A stretch of 60,039 nt of DNA, filler included, from Hausera hauseri (Eukaryota), in assembly GCA_046269625.1 (NCBI GenBank). It is 12 parts of 12 records of this genome, joined end to end, with 100 filler letters (N's around TTAATTAATTAA, not from the genome) between each part and the next. Parts side by side here need not be neighbours in the genome. Positions count along the whole stretch, not along the records: positions 43,317 to 50,659 come from JBJURY010020786.1; 11 more parts are not named here. The stretch is one strand, 5' to 3'. Below are positions 4,622 to 55,225 of the stretch, in pieces. Position 1 is the first letter of the stretch. Each line of letters opens with the position of its first letter. The translations under genes were made by a program, and so were the position numbers. The notes under the pieces are model-generated. The model was not told where the DNA came from. It ran no database searches and worked only from the letters and a program-made list of their open reading frames with translations.

Positions 4622-7600
4622 CTTTCTCAAAGTCGTTCTTGGCATTAGTCTGCAGCTTCGTATTGAGATATATGTATGACTGCAGCCACATGGACTGGTT
4701 GAACTGCAGGGCCCTGTAGATCTTAGTAATATGAAGTCCATGTCTAACTGCCTGTTGAAGATTGATGTAGTTGAGTACATACGTCCAGATGGTAAAGCAG
4801 CTTTCTCTGCTTTCCATGGGGCGGAGGCTTGCTCTCAGGGAGAAAAGGCAGATGTTGATGCCTTGAGTGGATGGAAGCCGGATATTCTATATCCATCTCC
4901 ACTATGTATCCCGTATCTTCGGTAGGATCCAGGTCCAATGTAGGGATGTTTTCAGGCTTCTCGACCCATTTGAAGTTATCATATGGCAATGGAACGCTTA
5001 TTGACCATCCATACTAGTTGTTGGCATTTAGGTATGATAGATATGAGGATTCCTTGGACGGATAATACTGGGTCATATAATTTTTGTTGGCCTCGCTATA
5101 CCGGTGAATGTCCTGGTATATTCCTCCTCTAATGACTCTTTCAATCATAAGGATCAAATCGTAATCCTTAATGATCTGCAGCCTTATGCTGGTATATCCC
5201 TGAATAGCTGCCTAGCTCATCTCCGGAGCCGCAAAGAAATAAGCCGAATCCAAAGCATGACTCTTCATTGTAAGATCCATGAAACTCTCAAAGACATCAG
5301 TCAGCAGCAGCACGTCCGTCGTGAGGTAATTATCATTGTATTCCCCTAATGTTCGGCATTGAAATGCTGCCATACATTTCGGGCATGCTGGTAGTCATCA
5401 TTACTGATATCGCAATCAGAGAGGGTATTGTAAAAGTCCTCCTTGGCCGGAAGTGAGGTCTCATCCAGTGTTTCACATGAAGTTATACAGTCATAGAGAA
5501 ACATTCCTTTCTTCTTGACTAGGTCAAATGAAATCTAAAATAATCGCTTCTTCTCCTTGAGTTCTTCTGCAGGGAGGGTCTTCACTAAACTATCCAGTGA
5601 AGACGACATGAAACGGAAACTGCTATAAACCGAATTTTGATTTTTTCAACATGCTTAGTAAAGGTGATGTACTTCTCCTCACTATTAGGGATTACATCAA
5701 TGTTTCCTTCAATGTTTCCCAGTTTCCGAACAATGAAGTAGAAATCATAGCCACTGAGATTATGGAACATTACAGGCACATATGTGCATGTTTTACAACG
5801 AAGATTGCAGTTGTTGCATGCTGCCTCTCGATATGCACCTGTAAAATGGCAGTGATCCTTGACTTTCCCATTTTCCTTGGTGAAGGACTTGTCGCACAAG
5901 TAACATGTTGTTGCCTTGCGCCATTCATCTTCTTGTTTCCACGACATGCTTATTGTATCCTTATGCTGCTGAAGCATGTTTTCAAGTCGTTTCATGAAAC
6001 GTGCTACTGCACCTGGACCTCTAAATAGAAATGGTTCACTGTCCAATCCTTTGACATACATGTAATATGATGAGAGTTTATGATATTGGTATGCTGTTGT
6101 GCTGCTATATTGGGGATTGGGAGTGCAACTCTGTACTGGTCTGAGAATAGCTTCAAAGTCTCAATAGGCGACAATTGGGACCTTGAGCTTCTTCTCGAAC
6201 TCCTTGAATTCAGTATAGTTTGCCTTGGGGAATTCTGGCCTGATACAGTAATTGTTGCTGCAGTACATTTTGCATTCTGCAAGCCTGTCCACTGCTGGAT
6301 CACCACTGAAATGGGACAAGCATCGTTTACATATTTCTATTTGTCCATGATGTTTCGTAATTTGGGATCTCACTAGACGTTCGAAGTTCTTGATGCAAAC
6401 ATAATGTGTCTTTTCCTCATCATCTAGTAGGAGCAGATCCATATGATCTTCCAATTCAGTATCGCATATCTGCAGGGGATATAATTTGTCCTCATTAGCG
6501 AATCCAATGATGTTGATGGATATATCGTTGATTCGACTGAACTTCTTGACTTCATCTATGGATGGTGGGAACTTAATACATTGGAAGTCATAGTTGTGAT
6601 GCACATCCTTATAACCAAACTCGTGAAGCATTATTTTGATCCCGTACGAGGTTTGATAGAATGGCATACATGAAACACTTGTTGTCGTTATTATGGACAT
6701 TTATGCCTACCTTTTTCCTTACGATCCAATCAGGGAGCCGGATATATGAACTACCCCACATGGGAGGGTACTTGTGAACATACACAAGCAATTTCTTGAT
6801 GGTTGCCAGAGTCCATCCACTCTTCTTATCTTGTCTCTCGTCGGCTTCACGGATCAGCTTCTCGTGCGCCTCTTGCAGTCATTCTGGTATATTAGTGTTT
6901 TCCTATATGGACCTGTTTTTGTTCTTGAAGGCCCTATTGGATTCTTCGCCGTAAACATTGATGTATGTGGCCTCCAGTTTCATATTAACCTAAGGGCCTT
7001 GAGCTCAGCTATGTTGTCCTGGAGAATTCCTTCTGTTTCTTCCTCTATGTACTCCAGGAACTCCTTGATGGTTGTTTGATCAGCTGCATCAATGACATAT
7101 TTGCGAACTTTTCTCTTTAATGCTGCCACATCAACTGGCCGCTCTTTTTGGGTTTTTGATGGAGCCGGTGCGTCTGATGTGGCCATGCCTGATGCTGCTG
7201 CGCATGATGCGGCTGCACGTTTCAATTCTCTAATATTCCTTCGCAGCTGCTGCATCAGATCCAGCAGCATAATGCGAGGCAGAATACTGCGAAGCGGATG
7301 CATCAATATTATGTTGCTCATTGTAGATGGCCTTCGTGGACTTTGATTCGAAGTGACTCAAATGATGTTTGTGATCATAATAGAGCTGTCTGTAATCTGC
7401 ACCGCATACAATCTCGCATTCCGAACATTTACAATATTGGATACTTTTGGATTTGTGTCCATAATACCGCTGCATCGTTTCATGTCACTGTTGCGGATTG
7501 TGCTTTGGATGTGCAATAAGCATAGGAACCTGACATTTGATTTGCTTTTGGGACACTTGTTGTCATTGGCATATTATTGTTGAATATTTCTTTCTTCGAT

Positions 7601-43316: not shown

Positions 43317-44067
43317 GATCTTTCGCAAAAAAAAGTGGTTCACGGAGCATATTCTCGGATGTTTTAAGAGCGAAGAATTCACGGTTACGAAGATCGGCGT
43401 TCACTACCACATTCATTTATTTGCGCACACGAAATACATCGACTACAAACTCTTTCGTCGTTGTTGGACGGAAAGTTTGCATTCTGCTATTCGTGATTCA
43501 GATTTAGAGTTTCAATTCAATACGTCCGACCAATTAGCAATGGCGAATTGCCGCCACGTCGTTAGCGTTGAATCGGCGATAAAAGAAGTCGCTAAATACA
43601 TCACTAAGTCCGACTCCTGGTCGAAGATTCCGACGAGCCAATTAATCGAGATCGCTCGCATTCGCCGGTTTCCGCGAATGACCGAATTCTGCGGAACTTT
43701 TCGGATTAATAATGAGATCGAGGACGAGCCAATCGAGGAGCAGGATACACAAGAGACTATCCTAGATACAAAGAGTTTATCTGACGGCGAAAAACTTCGC
43801 TCTTGGCGCGACGAGGTTCAAAAGATCGGCGCGTGGCAATATTCAAAACTTCTCCTGCATCAATTCGAGCAGTGTCGCGAATTTCGACGCTTCCAGTTGC
43901 GAAAACACTATCCTTACGCGCGCTTTTGGATGGTTTCTGTAGCCAAAGTGCGCTTTGGCGACGAGGTTCTAAACCGCTTCCGTGATTTCTTTGTGGCGTA
44001 TGAAACGAGTAAAGAAGGTCAGATAAAGACGGTTGAGCGAATTGCACAGTTTGCAAATCCCGCTTAA
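43317..44067 (+). CDS. rep: Rolling-circle Rep, 3' part
   Basis: Motif II VHYHIHLF near 43400, RRCW, motif III KEVAKYITK, R.F..CGTF; in frame with 50164 via the 77-nt overlap. Confidence 0.92.
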
Positions 44068-44079: not shown

Positions 44080-44523
44080 ATGAACGGCTCTGAGTTAGTT
44101 CAACATTACGAGCGAGAGTTTGGGCCGTTCGTGCATATGGCTCCAAACGACAAGGCGATCTGGCTTAGATTCCTGATGCTCGGCGGCGTGAAGTATGCGC
44201 CGTTTGAATACGACGTTCGCGTCGGCAATGGCGTCGAAATGCCCGTCGGCACTACCCTAATGGGAAAAAAGGCCGCATATGCTCTTACAACGAAAAGAAT
44301 CGACTGTCTGGCCGTGCTCGATAATGTCCACTACATCATCGAGGTAAAACAGCGCGCAGGATTGTCGGCGGTCGGCCAGCTAATTGGTTACGAGTCGCTC
44401 TATCGGGCTGGATTTTCTGCTCCGGTTACGATTCAGAAAGTTTTGGTCACCGATGAGTTACAACCCGATATGATCGGCATGCTCATCGAGTATTCAATTC
44501 AATATTTCGAGGTAGGTTTTTAA
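44080..44523 (+). CDS. PD-(D/E)XK restriction-endonuclease-like nuclease (NucS/Mrr-like catalytic domain), 147 aa
   Basis: KRIDCL..YIIEVK..AVGQLIGY = D..ExK..QxxxY signature. Confidence 0.85.
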   Translation: MNGSELVQHYEREFGPFVHMAPNDKAIWLRFLMLGGVKYAPFEYDVRVGNGVEMPVGTTLMGKKAAYALTTKRIDCLAVLDNVHYIIEVKQRAGLSAVGQLIGYESLYRAGFSAPVTIQKVLVTDELQPDMIGMLIEYSIQYFEVGF

Positions 44524-44738
44524 TGATGAAGAAAAAAGCTCGCCGCGCGCAACCACGCGTTCCTGATGTATTTTCCGAATTCCCCCGCGACTGTCACTGC
44601 GGTTGTGGTCGAAGGGTGAGAGGTCGCGTTATCTACTTTAACGGCGCGTGTCGGGTCCGTCACCATCGCAACTTAAATTACGCCGACGATTTCAAAACGT
44701 CCGTTCGTCGCTACAAAGCGCGCTACGAAAAGAGGTAG
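44523..44738 (+). CDS. Small basic Zn-finger-like protein, 71 aa
   Basis: CHCGCG..YFNGACRVRHHR; TAATG overlap with the nuclease stop. Confidence 0.7.
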   Translation: MMKKKARRAQPRVPDVFSEFPRDCHCGCGRRVRGRVIYFNGACRVRHHRNLNYADDFKTSVRRYKARYEKR

Positions 44739-44739
44739 G

Positions 44740-45528
44740 ATGAAAATAAAATTATCAGAACTGGACTTGCCCGAACGTGATCTACGCGCATCAGTCGACG
44801 AAGAATCACTCGATGAGTTAGCCGACTCGATGCGCGACCACGGCCAGCTTCAACCAATCGGCGTATTCCAAAAACCGAACGGACGATACGAAGTCGAATT
44901 CGGTGCTCGCCGGACACGCGCTGCCATTCTTCTTGGTTGGGAAGAGATCGATGCCGCCGAAGTCCGTCTGTCTGAGAACGGCCATTCATCCGCGCGAAAA
45001 CTCATCGAGAACGTGCAACGCGAAAACCTTACCGCGATGGAAGAAGCCTACGGCTTAATTGAGCTTGTCGGCGACGGCGAAATCGACGTTCGCGCATTGC
45101 GCCGATCGACTGGCAAGTCTCTAAGCTGGATAAAATCGCGTTTGGAACTTCTTGAGATGCCCGACGACGCGCAGGCCGTCGTGCAAAAGGGTCTCGTCTC
45201 GCCGAGCGTCGCCAAGATTCTTTCGCAGATCGAAAACCACGAAGTGCGCGAGACCTACTTCAACTTCGCAATTGAAAACGGCTGCACGATAGACACGGCG
45301 AAGTATTGGTTAAGCCAAGCAAAATTTGCCGAAAATGGTGAACTGTCGATGCAGGAATTCGAGGCGAAGAAGTTTGATAAACCTGAAATTACAGATGTTG
45401 TCGAGCGTCATTGGTCGTGCTTTACTTGCGGTCTTCAACACACCGCGAAAAACTGCTCGACTATCGTAATGTGCGGAACGTGCATCGCTGAAATTGTCGC
45501 CCACCGTAACACTTCTGCGGCTTCTTAA
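44740..45528 (+). CDS. parB: ParB/Spo0J-family protein with C-terminal CxxC..CxxC Zn ribbon, 262 aa
   Basis: LDELADSM..GQLQPI, GARRTRA (GxxRxxA CTP motif), LIENVQRENLTAMEEA, HTH region GKSLSWIKSRLELL, then CFTC..MCGTC. Confidence 0.92.
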   Translation: MKIKLSELDLPERDLRASVDEESLDELADSMRDHGQLQPIGVFQKPNGRYEVEFGARRTRAAILLGWEEIDAAEVRLSENGHSSARKLIENVQRENLTAMEEAYGLIELVGDGEIDVRALRRSTGKSLSWIKSRLELLEMPDDAQAVVQKGLVSPSVAKILSQIENHEVRETYFNFAIENGCTIDTAKYWLSQAKFAENGELSMQEFEAKKFDKPEITDVVERHWSCFTCGLQHTAKNCSTIVMCGTCIAEIVAHRNTSAAS

Positions 45529-45540
45529 CCACTACCCCTA

Positions 45541-45569
45541 TTGACTTAAAACACGCCGCGCGCTACATT
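45541..45569 (+). promoter_or_regulatory. Sigma70-like promoter of putative structural operon
   Basis: TTGACT-17 nt-TACATT, then GAGG SD and ATG at 45589. Confidence 0.7.
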
Positions 45570-45588: not shown

Positions 45589-46020
45589 ATGGCAATCAAG
45601 GTTAAAGACCTAAACCGGACAGCCGCGAAGTGGGCTGAACGAGCGGGTGGAGCATCTGGCGCTTATGCAGAGGGCGTTCAAAACCCAAAACGGGATTGGG
45701 CAGACGCAACAATCGGCGCGGCTGACAACTACAAAACGGCCGTCACAAAAGCCGCGAACGAAAACCGGTTCGCTGGCGGTGTTCGACGGGCTGGCAGCGA
45801 CAAACAGCAACGCAATGCAATGGCAAAAGGCGTAAACCGTTACAGCGACGGCGTGGCTCAGGGACAACCCGACTACGCCACCGGAATGGAACCGGTTCTA
45901 GCGACGTTGGCGAATGTGAATCTGCCGCCACGCGGCCCGAAAGGTTCTCCGCAAAATTTGAAGCGCGTCGAGGCGGTCGACGTTGCTCAACACGCGGCAA
46001 AATTACAGCGACAGCGCTAA
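45589..46020 (+). CDS. Ala/Gly-rich basic helical protein, 143 aa (putative internal or DNA-binding virion protein)
   Basis: Recurrent (Y/F)xxGV units (AYAEGV, RFAGGV, RYSDGV) and C-terminal LPPRGPKGSPQN; first gene after the promoter. Function is inferred. Confidence 0.75.
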   Translation: MAIKVKDLNRTAAKWAERAGGASGAYAEGVQNPKRDWADATIGAADNYKTAVTKAANENRFAGGVRRAGSDKQQRNAMAKGVNRYSDGVAQGQPDYATGMEPVLATLANVNLPPRGPKGSPQNLKRVEAVDVAQHAAKLQRQR

Positions 46021-46029
46021 GAGGTTTGT

Positions 46030-46824
46030 ATGGGTAAAGCAGTTGAAATCATCGGCGGTTCCGCGACCGCTCCAAGCACTACCGCGACGGCGTTGACGAT
46101 GTTCACGGGCAACTCGAATGTCGTTCGCAATTGCGAAGAATCTGCGGAAGTGAAACTCTTGCAGGCCTGGGCGGACAATCAAGGCGCTGGCTTTTTGAGA
46201 ATTCGCTCGCCAAAACTTCACGACAACGTTCAAGGCATCAGAATGCAGTCGGTCGTGAGCGAACCCTGGCCATTGATGCCCTACAATATTCCGCAAAAAT
46301 TATTCCCTCAGGACACTTTAACTTTGGAGATCACGGGAAGCGCAACTGCCGGTGATATCGAATCTGCCGCTTTTCTAATCCATTATGCCGATCTTCCTGG
46401 CATCGAGGGACGGTTCATCGACGAAGCAGAACTGATGAACCGAATGGTCAATTTGATGGGGCAGGAAAACACGATTGCGACCGGCACGGCTGGCGGTTGG
46501 TCTGGCGAAGAAGCGATTAACGCCGAGTTCGACAATTTTAAAGCCAATACAGACTACGCATTGCTCGGCTATCTCGTTTCCGCCGAGTGTCTGGCCGTTC
46601 GTTGGCGCGGATCGGACACAGGCAACCTCGGCGTGGGCGGGCCGGGAAATATCTCGCCGCAGTTTGGCACGAATAACTGGTTCGTGAATTTGAGCAACCG
46701 CTACGGAATGCCTCTTATTCCGGTGTTTAACTCGGCGAACAAATCCGCGATTTTGATCGACGCCGCGCAAGATGAGAACGGAGCCGATGTAACGGTTACA
46801 TCGCTTTTCGCCCAGCTAAATTGA
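46030..46824 (+). CDS. Putative major capsid protein (double jelly-roll-like), 264 aa
   Basis: Gene call solid (GAGG SD). Beta-strand periodicity in two ~130-aa halves, G/A/T/N-rich, no TM segment, size close to PM2 P2. The fold is inferred, not shown. Confidence 0.55.
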   Translation: MGKAVEIIGGSATAPSTTATALTMFTGNSNVVRNCEESAEVKLLQAWADNQGAGFLRIRSPKLHDNVQGIRMQSVVSEPWPLMPYNIPQKLFPQDTLTLEITGSATAGDIESAAFLIHYADLPGIEGRFIDEAELMNRMVNLMGQENTIATGTAGGWSGEEAINAEFDNFKANTDYALLGYLVSAECLAVRWRGSDTGNLGVGGPGNISPQFGTNNWFVNLSNRYGMPLIPVFNSANKSAILIDAAQDENGADVTVTSLFAQLN

Positions 46825-47633
46825 TGACCGAAAACGGCCTCATAAGTTCAACCTCTATTCCAGTAAGCCCGAATGATTTTATTCGGGCTGTGTTTTGGAA
46901 CAACAATTCCGGCACATCGTTTACAGTTTTTCTTCGCTACTCGCTTCTATTAAAAGACGGTTCGATTGTCGACGGCAACGAACAAATTTCCGTCGCCGCC
47001 GGCGCATCGGCTCAAGTGAATAGATTCGCTTTGACCGACGGCTGGCTGCTCTCGGCGTCGATCTCTGCATCCGGCGCTCCGACGCAGGCCGGTTTGGTTT
47101 ATTGCTCACTCGGCATTCAGCAAGGAGCTCCGAACGACCCTGCGAATGTCCTCACGCTCATCTCGAATTACATTGCAGGTTTTGGGCCGCTTCAATATCC
47201 GCTCGGCGGCACGACTGCTCCGAACGAAATTTACGGCGCGTCGATAGCCGAGCAAATCCCCAACCCTGGCGGCGGGACTGAATACAACGCAAACCTTCTT
47301 TTCGCCGGCTTCGTGAAGATAATTTCCGTTTCGGTAAATTTTAGTTCGAGCGCGGCTGTCGGTGATCGCATCCCGTCGATCAAAATAAGCGACATAACCG
47401 GCAATGTTGCTCACTTTGGCATAAGCTCAAAAATCCCCGCTTCCAGTAACGTTCAAATCTACTCAATGGCGACGCCGTTGCCCTCAAACATAGTCGCGAA
47501 CGTATTCTATTTTCAGTTTACCTTCTTGCCATTCATCCAAAACCCGATCATCCAAACCGTAACCCAAAATATACAAGGCGGCGATTCATACGACTCGATG
47601 ATTGTCCGTTACCGCGCGAAAACCGCGCTCTAA
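46821..47633 (+). CDS. Second beta-rich putative virion protein (penton/spike or second jelly-roll), about 270 aa
   Basis: Overlaps the preceding stop (TTGATG); S/T/N/G/I-rich beta pattern in two halves joined by a YPLGG..PNPGGG linker. Confidence 0.5.
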   Translation: MMTENGLISSTSIPVSPNDFIRAVFWNNNSGTSFTVFLRYSLLLKDGSIVDGNEQISVAAGASAQVNRFALTDGWLLSASISASGAPTQAGLVYCSLGIQQGAPNDPANVLTLISNYIAGFGPLQYPLGGTTAPNEIYGASIAEQIPNPGGGTEYNANLLFAGFVKIISVSVNFSSSAAVGDRIPSIKISDITGNVAHFGISSKIPASSNVQIYSMATPLPSNIVANVFYFQFTFLPFIQNPIIQTVTQNIQGGDSYDSMIVRYRAKTAL

Positions 47634-48574: not shown

Positions 48575-48649
48575 AAAAAACACGATCACGATTTTCTTTC
48601 TCCTTAGATCGATGTAACGCTTTTTTGTCTGACAATTCAAAATCTCCAA

Positions 48650-49330
48650 AGCGCGCGCATCATTCATTCTTGCGCGCGATTATCATTACAAAACGAAACA
48701 TTCATTGCGCGCGCATCGATCATTCACCGTGCGCGCAAGCATTCAAACGCGATAAAAACATCCAATTATGCGCGATCACGATGCGCGCGCGCGCATCCAT
48801 CAGCCGTTCGCCGCGCGCGCGCCCATCCAAAGGGCATCGAATCCATTCATTTCACGTGATCACGGCAAAAGAAACGACGAATTACAACCAAAAGCAGATC
48901 GAAGCGCGCGCGATAGCGCGATAGCGCCGAAAGCGCGCCCATCCATCGACCGTTCGCCGCGCGCGCGCCCATCCATCGCCAAGCGCGCATCCATCCATCG
49001 CCAAGCGCGCGCCCTTCCAATGAGCGCGCGCAGGCATCCAAAGGCTTTCTTCTTCCTTTCCTGAGCCGTGTTGCTGGTTAGAGACGACTTTTAACCGAAC
49101 CAAAGGCCGCGCGCATCCATATCTTTCCGAGTTGTCTCTTGAAATGTTTGCCCGCTTCGCGAAATCCACGCGCGCTTCCGTTCCTTTCGCCCGCGAAAGC
49201 CCCGCGTCGAGGCGACGCGCTGCTTCGCGACCTGCGCCATTCCTTGAAATGTCTTTCCGCTTCGCGAATTCATAGCTCTTGGCCGGCTGTGCCGACCGCC
49301 GCGAAATCGCGGCGACCGTCACGCGGCAAT
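48650..49330. repeat. Non-coding GCGCGC/CATCCAT repeat cluster with direct repeats
   Basis: More than a dozen (GC)3-6 runs; CCGTTCGCCGCGCGCGCGCCCATCCA at about 48804 and 48950; CTTGAAATGT.T..CCGCTTCGCGAA at about 49138 and 49243. Confidence 0.85.
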
Positions 49331-49598: not shown

Positions 49599-49744
49599 GC
49601 CGGAATCGGCAGCCGGATCGCCCAATTGTCTTTTTTTGCGTCGGCGGCGTCAAGGGTCAGGCTGGGCGGCGGAAACCGCCGCCCTTGACCCCGCCGCCGC
49701 AAAAAAATCCATATGGCGATTAATCCGGCTGCCGGCTGTCCGGC
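49599..49744. promoter_or_regulatory. Large nested inverted repeat (candidate single-strand origin or packaging signal)
   Basis: 49607-49618 pairs with 49723-49734; 49631-49656 pairs with 49682-49707 (2 mismatches); inner GGGCGGCGG-AAA-CCGCCGCCC. Confidence 0.7.
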
Positions 49745-50163: not shown

Positions 50164-50659
50164 GTGAAGCCGCCTCTGTATCACAAGGCTCAGGCTTTAG
50201 AGTCAGCCGAGTTTGGTCGGTCTATTTCTTCGACGATTGAATCCGCAATTCTTACAAATTCTCCGAAAGATCACGCCGAGATCGGTTCACTAGCGCTTCG
50301 GATCAAGTTGTGCAATTCTGAGGAAAATATTTGGTTCGGCGAGGACTTGCATACTCCTGACGGCGAATGTTATTCGGCTCACGGTCGGTTCTGGGCTTGC
50401 GGGTCGCGTTTGTGCCCGTCTTGCTGTTCGGCTCAGAGCCGCCGAGCCCGCCGAGAGCTTCGAAAGATCGTCGCCGGGCAAAAACTGCTGCTCGGCCAGC
50501 ACTACAAATTTCTAACCTTGACAATGCCGAACAAAGGCATCGGTTTGCTAGCTTCACGCGAGGTTATAAATAAGGCGTGGTCGATCTTTCGCAAAAAAAA
50601 GTGGTTCACGGAGCATATTCTCGGATGTTTTAAGAGCGAAGAATTCACGGTTACGAAGA
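50164..50659 (+). CDS. rep: Rolling-circle Rep (HUH, pC194/Rep_1-like), 5' part; continues across the circular junction (about 389 aa in total)
   Basis: CGSRLCPSC Zn motif, motif I FLTLT, EFTVTK running into IGVHYHIH after the join. Confidence 0.92.
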
Positions 50660-53146: not shown

Positions 53147-55225
53147 CCTTCATTCCACAATTTTAAAGTCTTGTATATGTACTCTACAAATTGTTGTTTC
53201 TTACCAGATATGCTTGTTTGTTTACTGATCTGTTTCAGCCTCTCTAAATTTTGTCAGAGTATTTCTGGATTGTGACATTTAGTTCTCACTTTTTTAATTC
53301 ATCGGCATTTTCCATAAACGTCGAACTTCCCATTTTCTCGCATCAGAATCACTATTATCGTCCGTTTCTTCCTCTCTGGCGGGAAGCGGACAAACTTTGT
53401 TTATTTCGTTATTAACATTTATCATCTATGGCATTTCTAACACTTTCCGCATTTAAATCTACATTTTGAGATGTTGTTGGTTTCTCGAACTGCTTTATTT
53501 CTTGCGGAACAGACTTTTTGCGTGCCATATTCGTGTTGTTCGGTGCCAATGCCCATTCTTCTTCAATTTGTGGTTCTCTTAATCAATGATAAACTTTCAT
53601 TAGTCGTAATTTCTTTTCATATTCGTTTCTAGCTTTCATTATCTGAGGATTTGTAGTTTCGCCTAGATTCCTTACAGATCTGCGTAAATCTTGCATTTCA
53701 ATAATCAAGCTTATATCACTTCGTTTGCCATAGATGGCTTCTAAAGTATTCTTAATCATACTTGTTTTGTTCGGTTCAGTAAATGTAACACTTCTTGGAT
53801 TTGGGCATGACCTAGCGATGTGTCCTTCTTTTCCGCATGTAAAGCAAATTATATTTTCATTTCCACCAATCCTTTGTCTGCTATCCTTATTTACAGGTGA
53901 TTTTGATCTGTTTGTATTCTTATTCTGGTTCTGTAACATTTGTCTATTATCTGCATCATACCTATTATCATTATTTCGATTATCCGTGTATTTGACATTA
54001 GGTCGGTAACTACCTTGATTTCTATCTGAATTGTAACTCGATTTATTATGTGAGTTGTTTTGATTATTACTAAAATTTCTGTCATTTCTTTGACTCCTAT
54101 TGTGAGCATTGTGTTATCTTGGTTATCATTTCTATTCCGATTATTTCCGTCATTATTCCTTTTATACTTGTCACATTTCTGGGCATATCTATCTAATGCC
54201 ATTTCTAAGTCTTGAGCTAATTGTATTGTCCGTTCAAAATTATCGAGTCTAGCCAGAATTAACTGTTTAACTAAATCTCTTGACCATATACCATTTATTA
54301 ATTGAGTTGTCATCATGACGTCTAAATCTGGCGGTGTTGCCTTTTCTGAGGCCTCACGCTCTGCTTCTGTCTTAGCTTTTGCTACATTAGCTATTCTCAA
54401 AGTAGAAGTTTCTTTAATGCACATGCAAACTGGGTTACTGATTCACCCTTTTGTTGTACTCTATTCTAAAATGCCATGAGTTTCTGTTGCGGCACTACTG
54501 TTGACAATAAGTTGTGGTTTAATGCTCCTACCAGGGAGGATCAAGATTTTTTTTGTCGTTAGTAAGCTCACTATAGGCATCAGCAGCTAAATTTTTAAGA
54601 TATAGTGATAACCGTTTTATTGTTACTTCAGGAGTAAGACTAGCACCTTCCGCGTGCAACTTATAAGTTCTCAGAAAATCGTTTAATCCGTCCGGATCAC
54701 CATCGTATGCCGGAAAATTCAAAGAATCAAATGAAAAAATGTCGAGCTTTTGTGCTATGGCTGGATTATCCGCTGCCATCTCTATCTTATTCTTAGAAGG
54801 TTTATCCTTAAGTCGAGGAAGTTTAAACTTACCGTTTGGCTCTGTATTAATTCTTGTTTCAGAATTTGTTCTGTATATAACTCTGCGTGTCTCTTGTATA
54901 GGCGATTTATTTCTACCGTTTATTTGGTTATCAACGTCCGTAACCTTCATTCCACAATTTTAAAGTCTTGTATAGTTTCTCTGCAAATTGTTGTTTCTTA
55001 CCAGATATGCCTGTTTGTTTACTGATCTGTTTAAGCCTCTCTAAATTTTGTCAGAGTATTTCTGGATTGTGACATTTAGTTATCATTTTTTAATTCATCG
55101 GCATTTTCCATGAATGTCGAACTTCCCATTTTCTCGCATCAAAATCATTATTATCGTCCGTTTCTTCCTCTCTGGCGGGAAGCGGACAAACTTTGTTTAT
55201 TTCGTTATTAACATTTATCATCTAT
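53147..55225. repeat. ~282-bp direct repeat (53147-53429 and 54944-55225) flanking a gag copy
   Basis: Near-identical copies about 1796 bp apart; the last 77 nt of the contig match the internal copy exactly. Confidence 0.92.
53583..54800 (-). pseudogene. Retrotransposon gag with CCHC zinc knuckle, frameshifted
   Basis: FPAYDGDP..FL..Y, LSLYLKNLAADAY, RVQQKGESVT (major homology region), QLINGI, Asn/Arg-rich linker, CFTCGKEGHIARSC. Confidence 0.88.

Follow-up and report, generated by a model that had tools for sequence, protein, structure and literature searches.

The window analyzed here, meaning the whole 60,039-nucleotide (nt) stretch of DNA from the Hausera hauseri assembly, is a string of contigs, and the circle that we describe derives from the contig at 43317-50659 alone. 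An exact repeat of 77 nt at its two ends (43317-43393 = 50583-50659) closes this contig to a circle of 7,266 nt. The circle junction is spanned by a public contig without a host-like loose end. Note that the spanning contig is not independent support, since its run is possibly the source sample. Every gene of the circle lies on the + strand, and the circle is probably a virus, and a bacterial one. Its features, together with one class of sites on related circles, are as follows.

50164..50659, + strand: 5' part of a Rep_1-family rolling-circle initiator (Pfam Rep_1), which runs on across the circle junction
43394..44067, + strand: 3' part of the rolling-circle initiator, with motifs II and III (motifs)
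44080..44523, + strand: PD-(D/E)XK nuclease, NucS_C-like, with D, ExK and QLxxY kept (profile match, motifs)
44523..44738, + strand: ORF71, small, basic and Cys-rich (CxCGCG), between nuclease and parB
44740..45528, + strand: ParB-C4 protein P0001, 262 amino acids (aa) (ORF, Pfam, TIGR00180, structure model)
44740..45051, + strand: ParB CTP-fold domain of P0001, from Met1, without the ParA-binding arm (alignment)
45052..45330, + strand: DNA-binding domain of P0001, of helix-turn-helix (HTH) type (Pfam, alignment)
45331..45411, + strand: linker of P0001, weakly conserved and of fixed length, presumed wall of a DNA-holding compartment (alignment)
45412..45489, + strand: C4 zinc motif of P0001 (C227, C230, C245, C248), predicted homodimer interface (alignment, dimer model)
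45541..45569, + strand: sigma70-type promoter TTGACT-17-TACATT before the structural genes (position and -35 box kept in relatives)
45589..46020, + strand: basic 143-aa protein (ORF143), candidate nucleoprotein (conserved, 51-64% identity in relatives)
46030..46824, + strand: 264-aa two-jelly-roll protein, probable major capsid protein (model; 2,523 homologs)
46821..47633, + strand: 270-aa protein, weakly conserved, probable minor virion protein (judged by position)
48630..49044, no strand: GCGCGC/CATCCAT repeat array directly 3' of the structural genes, candidate loading or nucleation site
L028:690 and 1223; L030:5058; L033:186 and 231; L034:5852: dif-like sites on related circles

Several further short ORFs are present on the circle, and Rfam gave no match. 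Nick-site words of a double-strand origin were not found in the window; a long hairpin upstream of rep (49622-49716, with a 35-nt inverted repeat that is 83% complementary) is a candidate for such an origin. Beyond the circle, a stretch of ~280 nt at the end of the adjoining AT-rich contig is imperfectly duplicated (53147-53429 and 54944-55225), and an ORF on the neighboring contig (42546-42914, - strand) resembles what we take to be a fragment of a polinton-type family B DNA polymerase.

P0001 carries the motifs GARRTRA (55-61) and ENVQRENL (90-97), an HTH, and CFTC-x14-CGTC (227-248). Pfam places ParB_N at residues 3-93 (E = 1.4e-14) and HTH_ParB at 95-190 (E = 3.8e-10; PF17762), and TIGR00180 matches with 106 bits (cut-off 58). 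The structure model (mean pLDDT 83.5) aligns with Spo0J (1vz0) at Z 13.9 and an rmsd of 3.4 Å over 168 residues, and also matches Noc, ParB and KorB. Boxes I, II (GxxR) and III (ENxxR) of the ParB-CTPase fold are all found, and the CTP-binding residues R16, S30, G35, R57, R58, E90, N91 and R94 are kept.

A single search returned 68 full-length relatives of P0001, all on contigs of at most 8.1 kb; these and P0001 are the 69 aligned proteins that we call the core. Among the best 150 matches of a profile search against 1.84 billion representatives, 138 have the pattern CxxC-xn-CxxC (n = 14 in 137, 17 in one). Of the 12 without a full C4, one is a fragment, one an unrelated protein, and most are His/Asp variants. 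The ParB-C4 family thus comprises at least 138 clusters at 50% identity. A wider search placed 119 of the 120 matches listed on contigs of at most 13.2 kb and one on a contig of 23 kb. Fourteen family members were found among 77 metagenome loci, and these 14 include six closed contigs that represent five distinct circles. Four other loci (L002, L003, L010 and L011) were rejected as unrelated phage fragments with similarity in the N-domain only. IMG/VR scans with the ParB alignment and with two distant ParB-C4 proteins gave no family member, only weak matches without the C4 motif; annotated phages and plasmids gave no family match among the matches listed. A genome scan yielded weak N-domain matches only and no host, and the Atlas holds unnamed clusters only.

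The features of the CTP pocket extend across this family. In Caulobacter ParB, the seven binding-class (class I) residues are R60, S74, G79, R103, R104, N136 and R139 (PMC8367383, in part; here and below, 'in part' denotes the accessible portion of a source). Their equivalents are kept in 68-69 of the 69 core proteins and in 132-149 of the 150 distant ones, and P0001 also keeps the equivalent of E135. Within the HTH, K126, W130 and R134 are invariant in the core (69/69). Position 128 is R in 63 of the 69 but L in P0001, whose DNA specificity may therefore differ.

What this family lacks is any sign of ParA. None of the genes of the 7,266-nt circle contains a Walker A motif and, with the terminal repeat closing the circle, the absence of parA noted in the initial annotation is borne out. 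The ParA-binding motif, [LFI]G[KR]G[LFI] as defined in PMC12704722 (in part), was found in 0 of 69 core and 0 of 150 distant proteins, versus 39 of 52 canonical-type controls. Moreover, merely 15 residues precede the first CTP-contacting Arg in 68 of the 69 core proteins, and it is the N-terminal peptide that serves as the ParA-binding element (PMC12462528, in part). With the motif absent and the N-terminus this short, recruitment of a host ParA, as the initial annotation had proposed, is unlikely. A ParA-type motif occurs at none of the 14 family loci, compared with 41 of 91 other parB loci; for loci of at least 6 kb the counts are 0 of 6 and 28 of 59. The initial annotation had also called for a phylogeny, and a quick tree (N and HTH domains only; 17 of the 69 core proteins, 45 sampled distant and 52 canonical-type proteins, with rows chosen by similarity) nests P0001 among C4 proteins, with all 52 canonical-type matches on the other side of a branch with SH-aLRT 97. 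The initial annotation had envisaged that relatives might routinely carry parA, which would make the present copy a deletion derivative. That reading fails, given the loci without a ParA motif, the arm missing family-wide, and the tree placement. As far as the sequences tell, the ParA-less state is a stable family trait and not a deletion relic. Ordinary partition through a host ParA, or descent from a parAB cassette minus its parA, would be in keeping with Noc and Spo0J/ParB being the closest solved relatives of P0001; set against the missing ParA-binding peptide and the tree, we regard it as barely credible. P0001 belongs to the ParB-CTPase fold, not to the canonical ParABS partition systems.

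The catalytic side of the pocket differs from the binding side. The putative catalytic residues Q58 and E102 of Caulobacter ParB, mapped through the Spo0J and Noc alignments, correspond to D14 and A56 in P0001. Equivalents of Q58 and E102 are found in 0 and 0 of the 69 core proteins and in 8 and 3 of the 150 distant ones, respectively, and in 41 and 51 of the 52 canonical-type proteins. The intact CTP motif and HTH of the initial annotation therefore hold for the HTH and the binding residues, but both putative catalytic residues are replaced. The Caulobacter E102A protein is a clamp-locked mutant (PMC8367383, in part), and VirB, in which one of the two hydrolysis residues is missing, is a very weak CTPase (PMC10770331, in part). 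With both residues replaced, CTP hydrolysis by ParB-C4 could well be slow, although we place this slightly short of an even call. Slow hydrolysis is not assured, because KorB has the same GARR motif and yet hydrolyzes 60-90 CTP per dimer per hour (PMC11790492, in part).

Nucleotide preference in the ParB fold is not reliably predictable from sequence, and orphan ParB folds that bind ATP, GTP or CTP are indistinguishable in this way (PMC12704722, in part). P0001 might thus use another nucleotide or none, or it might serve as a trans-acting decoy and interfere with the ParB of the host or with chromosome segregation. CTP is favored by the canonical domain order (TIGR00180 above its cut-off), by Box III, which is kept in 149 of the 150 distant proteins, and by the GQLQP loop of P0001, which is like those of CTP binders (compared with PMC12704722, in part). 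As for the decoy, the different C-terminal module should make mixed dimers with a host ParB unlikely. We consider both versions very improbable.

Dimerization of ParB is textbook knowledge, and the initial annotation had placed a Zn ribbon where the C-terminal dimerization domain usually lies. The four Cys of the C4 motif are invariant in all 69 aligned proteins, so they are not there by chance, and PF23552, the usual C-terminal domain, is found in many of the 52 canonical-type matches and in none of 68 family matches. The substitution thus stands, but the ribbon is doubtful, because the second CxxC lies at the start of a helix (residues 246-261 of the model) rather than on a beta-hairpin knuckle; the motif reads more like a treble-clef type finger. 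Zinc-family matches to the C4 region are weak (at most 7 of 113 members), the alignment of the fold search stopped short of it, and a sequence search with this region gave non-significant matches only. Distant members such as P0429, P0437, P0438, P0440 and others have other residues in place of the third Cys, the fourth Cys or both, with His frequent at the third position.

A dimer model run with zinc points to the C4 motif as the interface. The homodimer scored 0.48 (runs 0.11, 0.51 and 0.48) and the best control 0.00, with one of three runs thus at 0.11 and with zinc and its own alignment included, unlike the calibration of the method. Of solved homodimers, 20 of 30 attain the mark for this score, as does 1 of 23 monomers; the contacts agree to at least 53%, with a pLDDT of at least 62. 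Confident contacts fall at residues 200-249 only and include C227-C245', C227-C248' and C230-C248', and the modeled interface differs from the N-domain interface of solved ParB structures. In the model, the C4 motif itself seems to be the dimer interface, doing the job of the usual C-terminal domain, so dimerization is seemingly performed and not abolished. It may form a zinc-built dimer module, possibly a chain-swapped one. The linker that leads to it, from W190 to C227, is 37 aa long in all 66 scorable core proteins, and in the wider alignment the linker is 34 aa in 110 of 144.

Comparison with characterized ParB-fold proteins suggests how such a protein may act. Chromosomal ParB/Spo0J and Noc share with P0001 the CTP-fold, the HTH and the binding residues (identity of ~27-34% across the N and HTH domains). 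Unlike them, P0001 has no ParA arm, parA or N-terminal extension, its Q/E pair is replaced, a C4 motif stands in for the C-terminal domain, and the recognition-helix residues (W130, R134) differ. KorB of plasmid RK2 has the GARR phosphate motif in common and is a CTP sliding clamp on promoters, but it has a peptide that binds IncC (ParA), also partitions, and locks with KorA, whereas P0001 has neither arm nor ParA (PMC11790492, in part). VirB of Shigella (PMC10770331, in part) and BisD of ICEclc (PMC12409273, in part) are ParB-derived CTP clamps reused for transcription control. What sets them apart from P0001 is that they activate transcription or counter silencing, from loading sites that are known. 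The C-terminal domain of VirB is P1-ParB-like, BisD carries an activator domain, and the accessible portions of these sources mention no C4 motif for either. By analogy, P0001 would work like a KorB/VirB-type CTP clamp.

We therefore favor a ParA-independent, CTP-gated sliding clamp that acts on its own circle, which we hold to be likely for the first three steps that follow. All CTP-binding residues and the HTH are kept and the ParA arm is missing, which would give a clamp that operates without ParA. Two chains are modeled as joining through the C4 zinc motif, which would close the bottom of a ring, with the fixed-length linker forming a DNA compartment. By analogy with ParB, KorB and VirB, the HTH would bind a viral loading site, CTP would shut the N-terminal gate, and the clamp would slide. 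In the fourth step, a nearly even call, the replaced catalytic residues would slow release, so that clamps would pile up on an endless 7-kb circle. In the last and least sure step, the coated circle would be quiet and plasmid-like, with the sigma70 promoter of the virion genes damped, until clamps were lost or outnumbered by replicated copies and the promoter was freed. Taken as a whole, the chain in which the clamp gates the structural promoter and holds a quiet genome state, drawn by comparison with KorB, VirB and BisD, is plausible, although we lean somewhat against it.

Observations that support the quiet-state chain are that parB is kept while the replication module is swapped, that a conserved -35 box lies downstream of parB, and that most related circles carry the dif-like sites described below. 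A sigma70-type -35 box (TTGAC) follows parB and precedes the structural genes in 8 of 11 loci, and in several of these the -10 is followed by a GC-rich stretch. Note that the promoter scan alone is at chance (7 found versus 5.9 expected), and the support is conservation only. At L027 and L029, another gene and a terminator-like hairpin occupy the promoter position. With the promoter at 45541 conserved, the initial annotation's CTP-dependent sliding repressor in front of the structural promoter is plausible as a regulator, but no operator was found. Against the chain, promoter adjacency is weak evidence, no loading site was found that all circles share, the window circle has no dif-like site, and we identified no conserved clamp-locking partner of the kind that KorB requires for strong long-range repression (PMC11790492, in part). 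ORF71 is a possible clamp partner. ORFs that resemble it, by eye only, occur in L028 and L030, 3' of the structural genes.

The search for a loading site gave one candidate on the window circle. The array at 48630-49044 reaches 25 GCGCGC per 500 nt, where the highest of 40 shuffles has 7. GCGC-rich arrays directly after the structural genes also occur in L033, L034, L030 and L028 (~3.6-4.2 kb downstream of the parB start), whatever the replication module, and these could be clamp-loading, packaging or origin signals. We found no loading site common to all circles, and parS, Noc and KorB motifs have no window match closer than 4 mismatches. A palindrome, YGCGC-AWNNWT-GCGCR, was considered as the ParB site and rejected, as it was post hoc, is absent from L027 and is at chance level in the window.

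Four of the five related closed circles carry dif-like (XerC/XerD) sites with an ATAA-N6-TTATG core in a non-coding control region, where 0.02-0.03 per contig would be expected by chance. None was found in the window circle, and L027 has one further core match, inside a gene. These sites were also rejected as a ParB site, because they match published dif sites and are missing from the window; they fit a plasmid-like or integrating life-style. Their left arm resembles published acidobacterial dif sites, although the word concerned is common, with 87 occurrences in the table of PMC3025954 (in part), and one capsid-like homolog is labeled Terriglobales (MAG). An acidobacterial host is thus a weak lead.

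The carrier state bears on a rather unlikely alternative, in which the clamp maintains the circle without ParA: its CTP domain would draw in host SMC, or the clamp would tether the circle to the host nucleoid, and carrier copies would thereby be passed on. A parallel exists in the ParB of Streptococcus pneumoniae, which is armless like P0001 (bioRxiv 10.1101/2021.12.15.472096, in part), although that protein is chromosomal, loads Smc at parS, and is not described with a C4 motif in the accessible portion. A 7-kb circle would give loop extrusion little scope; furthermore, the carrier state is putative and the window circle is without a dif-like site.

The sliding clamp that we prefer must also be seen against the viruses that carry it. 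The Odin-group double-jelly-roll viruses (Yutin et al. 2018, PMC5894146) are, like the circles here, 7-11 kb long with terminal repeats and no packaging ATPase and, as on the window circle, conserve a ParB and a PD-(D/E)XK protein (PMC5894146). In their 282-aa ParB example, the recognition helix closely resembles that of P0001 and CxxC-x14-CxxC lies at 242-263 (HHpred output in the supplement, compared by eye), so this gene type is already in print on such circles. The paper names it a 'ParB-like nuclease', and its Odin section is silent on CTP, the missing arm and the zinc motif. The 143-aa gene before the capsid gene has the same position as Odin-group 'cons1', a likeness of position alone. 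The Odin-group capsid example is a 395-aa STIV-like protein, whereas the 264-aa protein here has no whole-chain double-jelly-roll match. This 2018 record, the linked nuclease and the catalytic Q/E loss had been overlooked by the initial annotation. In the literature searched, outside which most subscription papers lie, we found neither the reading as a clamp nor the absent arm, the lost Q/E pair or the zinc dimer; in the accessible portion of a 2025 survey of the ParB fold (PMC12704722), 'zinc' occurs in the main text once, in the references. Charybdis elements, considered as a home group, do not appear to match (source available in part).

Two jelly rolls are predicted in the 264-aa protein. 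Its best match is to a single domain (Z 5.1, rmsd 3.1 Å, 115 aligned), and the match to the STIV coat has E = 1.4e-4 but a TM of 0.24. Pfam, PHROG and two IMG/VR scans gave it no match, and fold comparison gave none along the whole chain; the protein is possibly an uncatalogued capsid lineage. A 3,063-nt circle labeled Inoviridae sp. (L107, MW202783.1) carries a 33% identical two-jelly-roll homolog and no ParB; its label looks wrong. By a proxy that pairs contigs of equal size among the best 120 matches listed, a ParB-C4 match is paired with 11 of 36 capsid-match contigs of 6-9 kb and with 0 of 23 above 9 kb, where 0.8 would be expected by chance. From L107 and this proxy, ParB-C4 looks accessory within a wider capsid-like family. 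A weak match to an M15 peptidase was seen in L027.

These data weigh on the alternative that the clamp condenses or pre-organizes the circle for capsid assembly in a virus without a packaging ATPase. None of the six closed circles carries a P-loop ATPase, and the Odin-group viruses likewise lack one yet keep ParB. Nevertheless, parB lies upstream of the structural promoter and outside the structural unit, L107 has the capsid-like gene without parB, pairing fails above 9 kb, and ORF143 is a better-placed nucleoprotein candidate. We judge condensation to be decidedly improbable.

If the sliding clamp has a constant companion, it is not the replication protein. Rep crosses the circle junction and has 389 aa, HUH motifs I-III and a Pfam Rep_1 match, and the rolling-circle replicon of the initial annotation is confirmed to that extent, but not as an oddity. 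Rep_1 occurs in two of the six closed circles (the window circle and L033), and no Rep_1 homolog was found in the other four, which have an HTH_36 protein (L030 and L034) or ORFs of no assigned family (L027 and L028). Because parB stays while the replication module swaps, rolling-circle replication is incidental. The constant partner of parB is the upstream PD-(D/E)XK nuclease, present in all 12 loci that have upstream sequence, in a sample that is one clade and includes the near-duplicates L027/L029 and L031/L032. Its gene overlaps parB by a 4-nt stop/start in five loci and is separated from it by a gap or an inserted gene in seven, and the active-site motifs are kept in 9 of the 9 sequences shown. 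After parB, some relatives have a Holliday-junction-resolvase-like nuclease (L027:1690-1986 and 5083-5382; L031:2526-2822).

ParB-C4 and the nuclease may therefore be read as a two-gene module, in which the clamp would label or protect the circle and direct or hold back a nuclease that cleaves the DNA of the host or of competitors or acts on replication multimers. The linkage, the overlaps, the kept active site and the naming of both genes as conserved in the Odin-group viruses (PMC5894146) speak for this module. As the loci include near-duplicates from a single clade, the linkage may reflect shared descent, and most of them do not have the overlap. We consider the module unlikely as the explanation of P0001. 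A similarly small chance attaches to a larger picture that joins it to the sliding clamp: a virus-borne family of naturally clamp-locked rings, closed at one end by CTP and at the other by a two-zinc C4 dimer with swapped chains, which would coat a 7-kb genome and, with the nuclease, switch an ATPase-less, uncatalogued two-jelly-roll virus between carrier and virion states.

ParB-C4 is a minimal natural test of how a ParB clamp acts when ParA is missing, and of whether a clamp on a closed 7-kb circle can do without CTP hydrolysis, a question that laboratory clamp-locked mutants could not settle in the native host (PMC8367383, in part). If our reading is true, zinc-built ring closure would join the ParB repertoire, and the 'ParB-like nuclease' of ATPase-less jelly-roll viruses would be recast as a CTP switch. 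It would also provide a handle on how these viruses regulate or pack their genomes.
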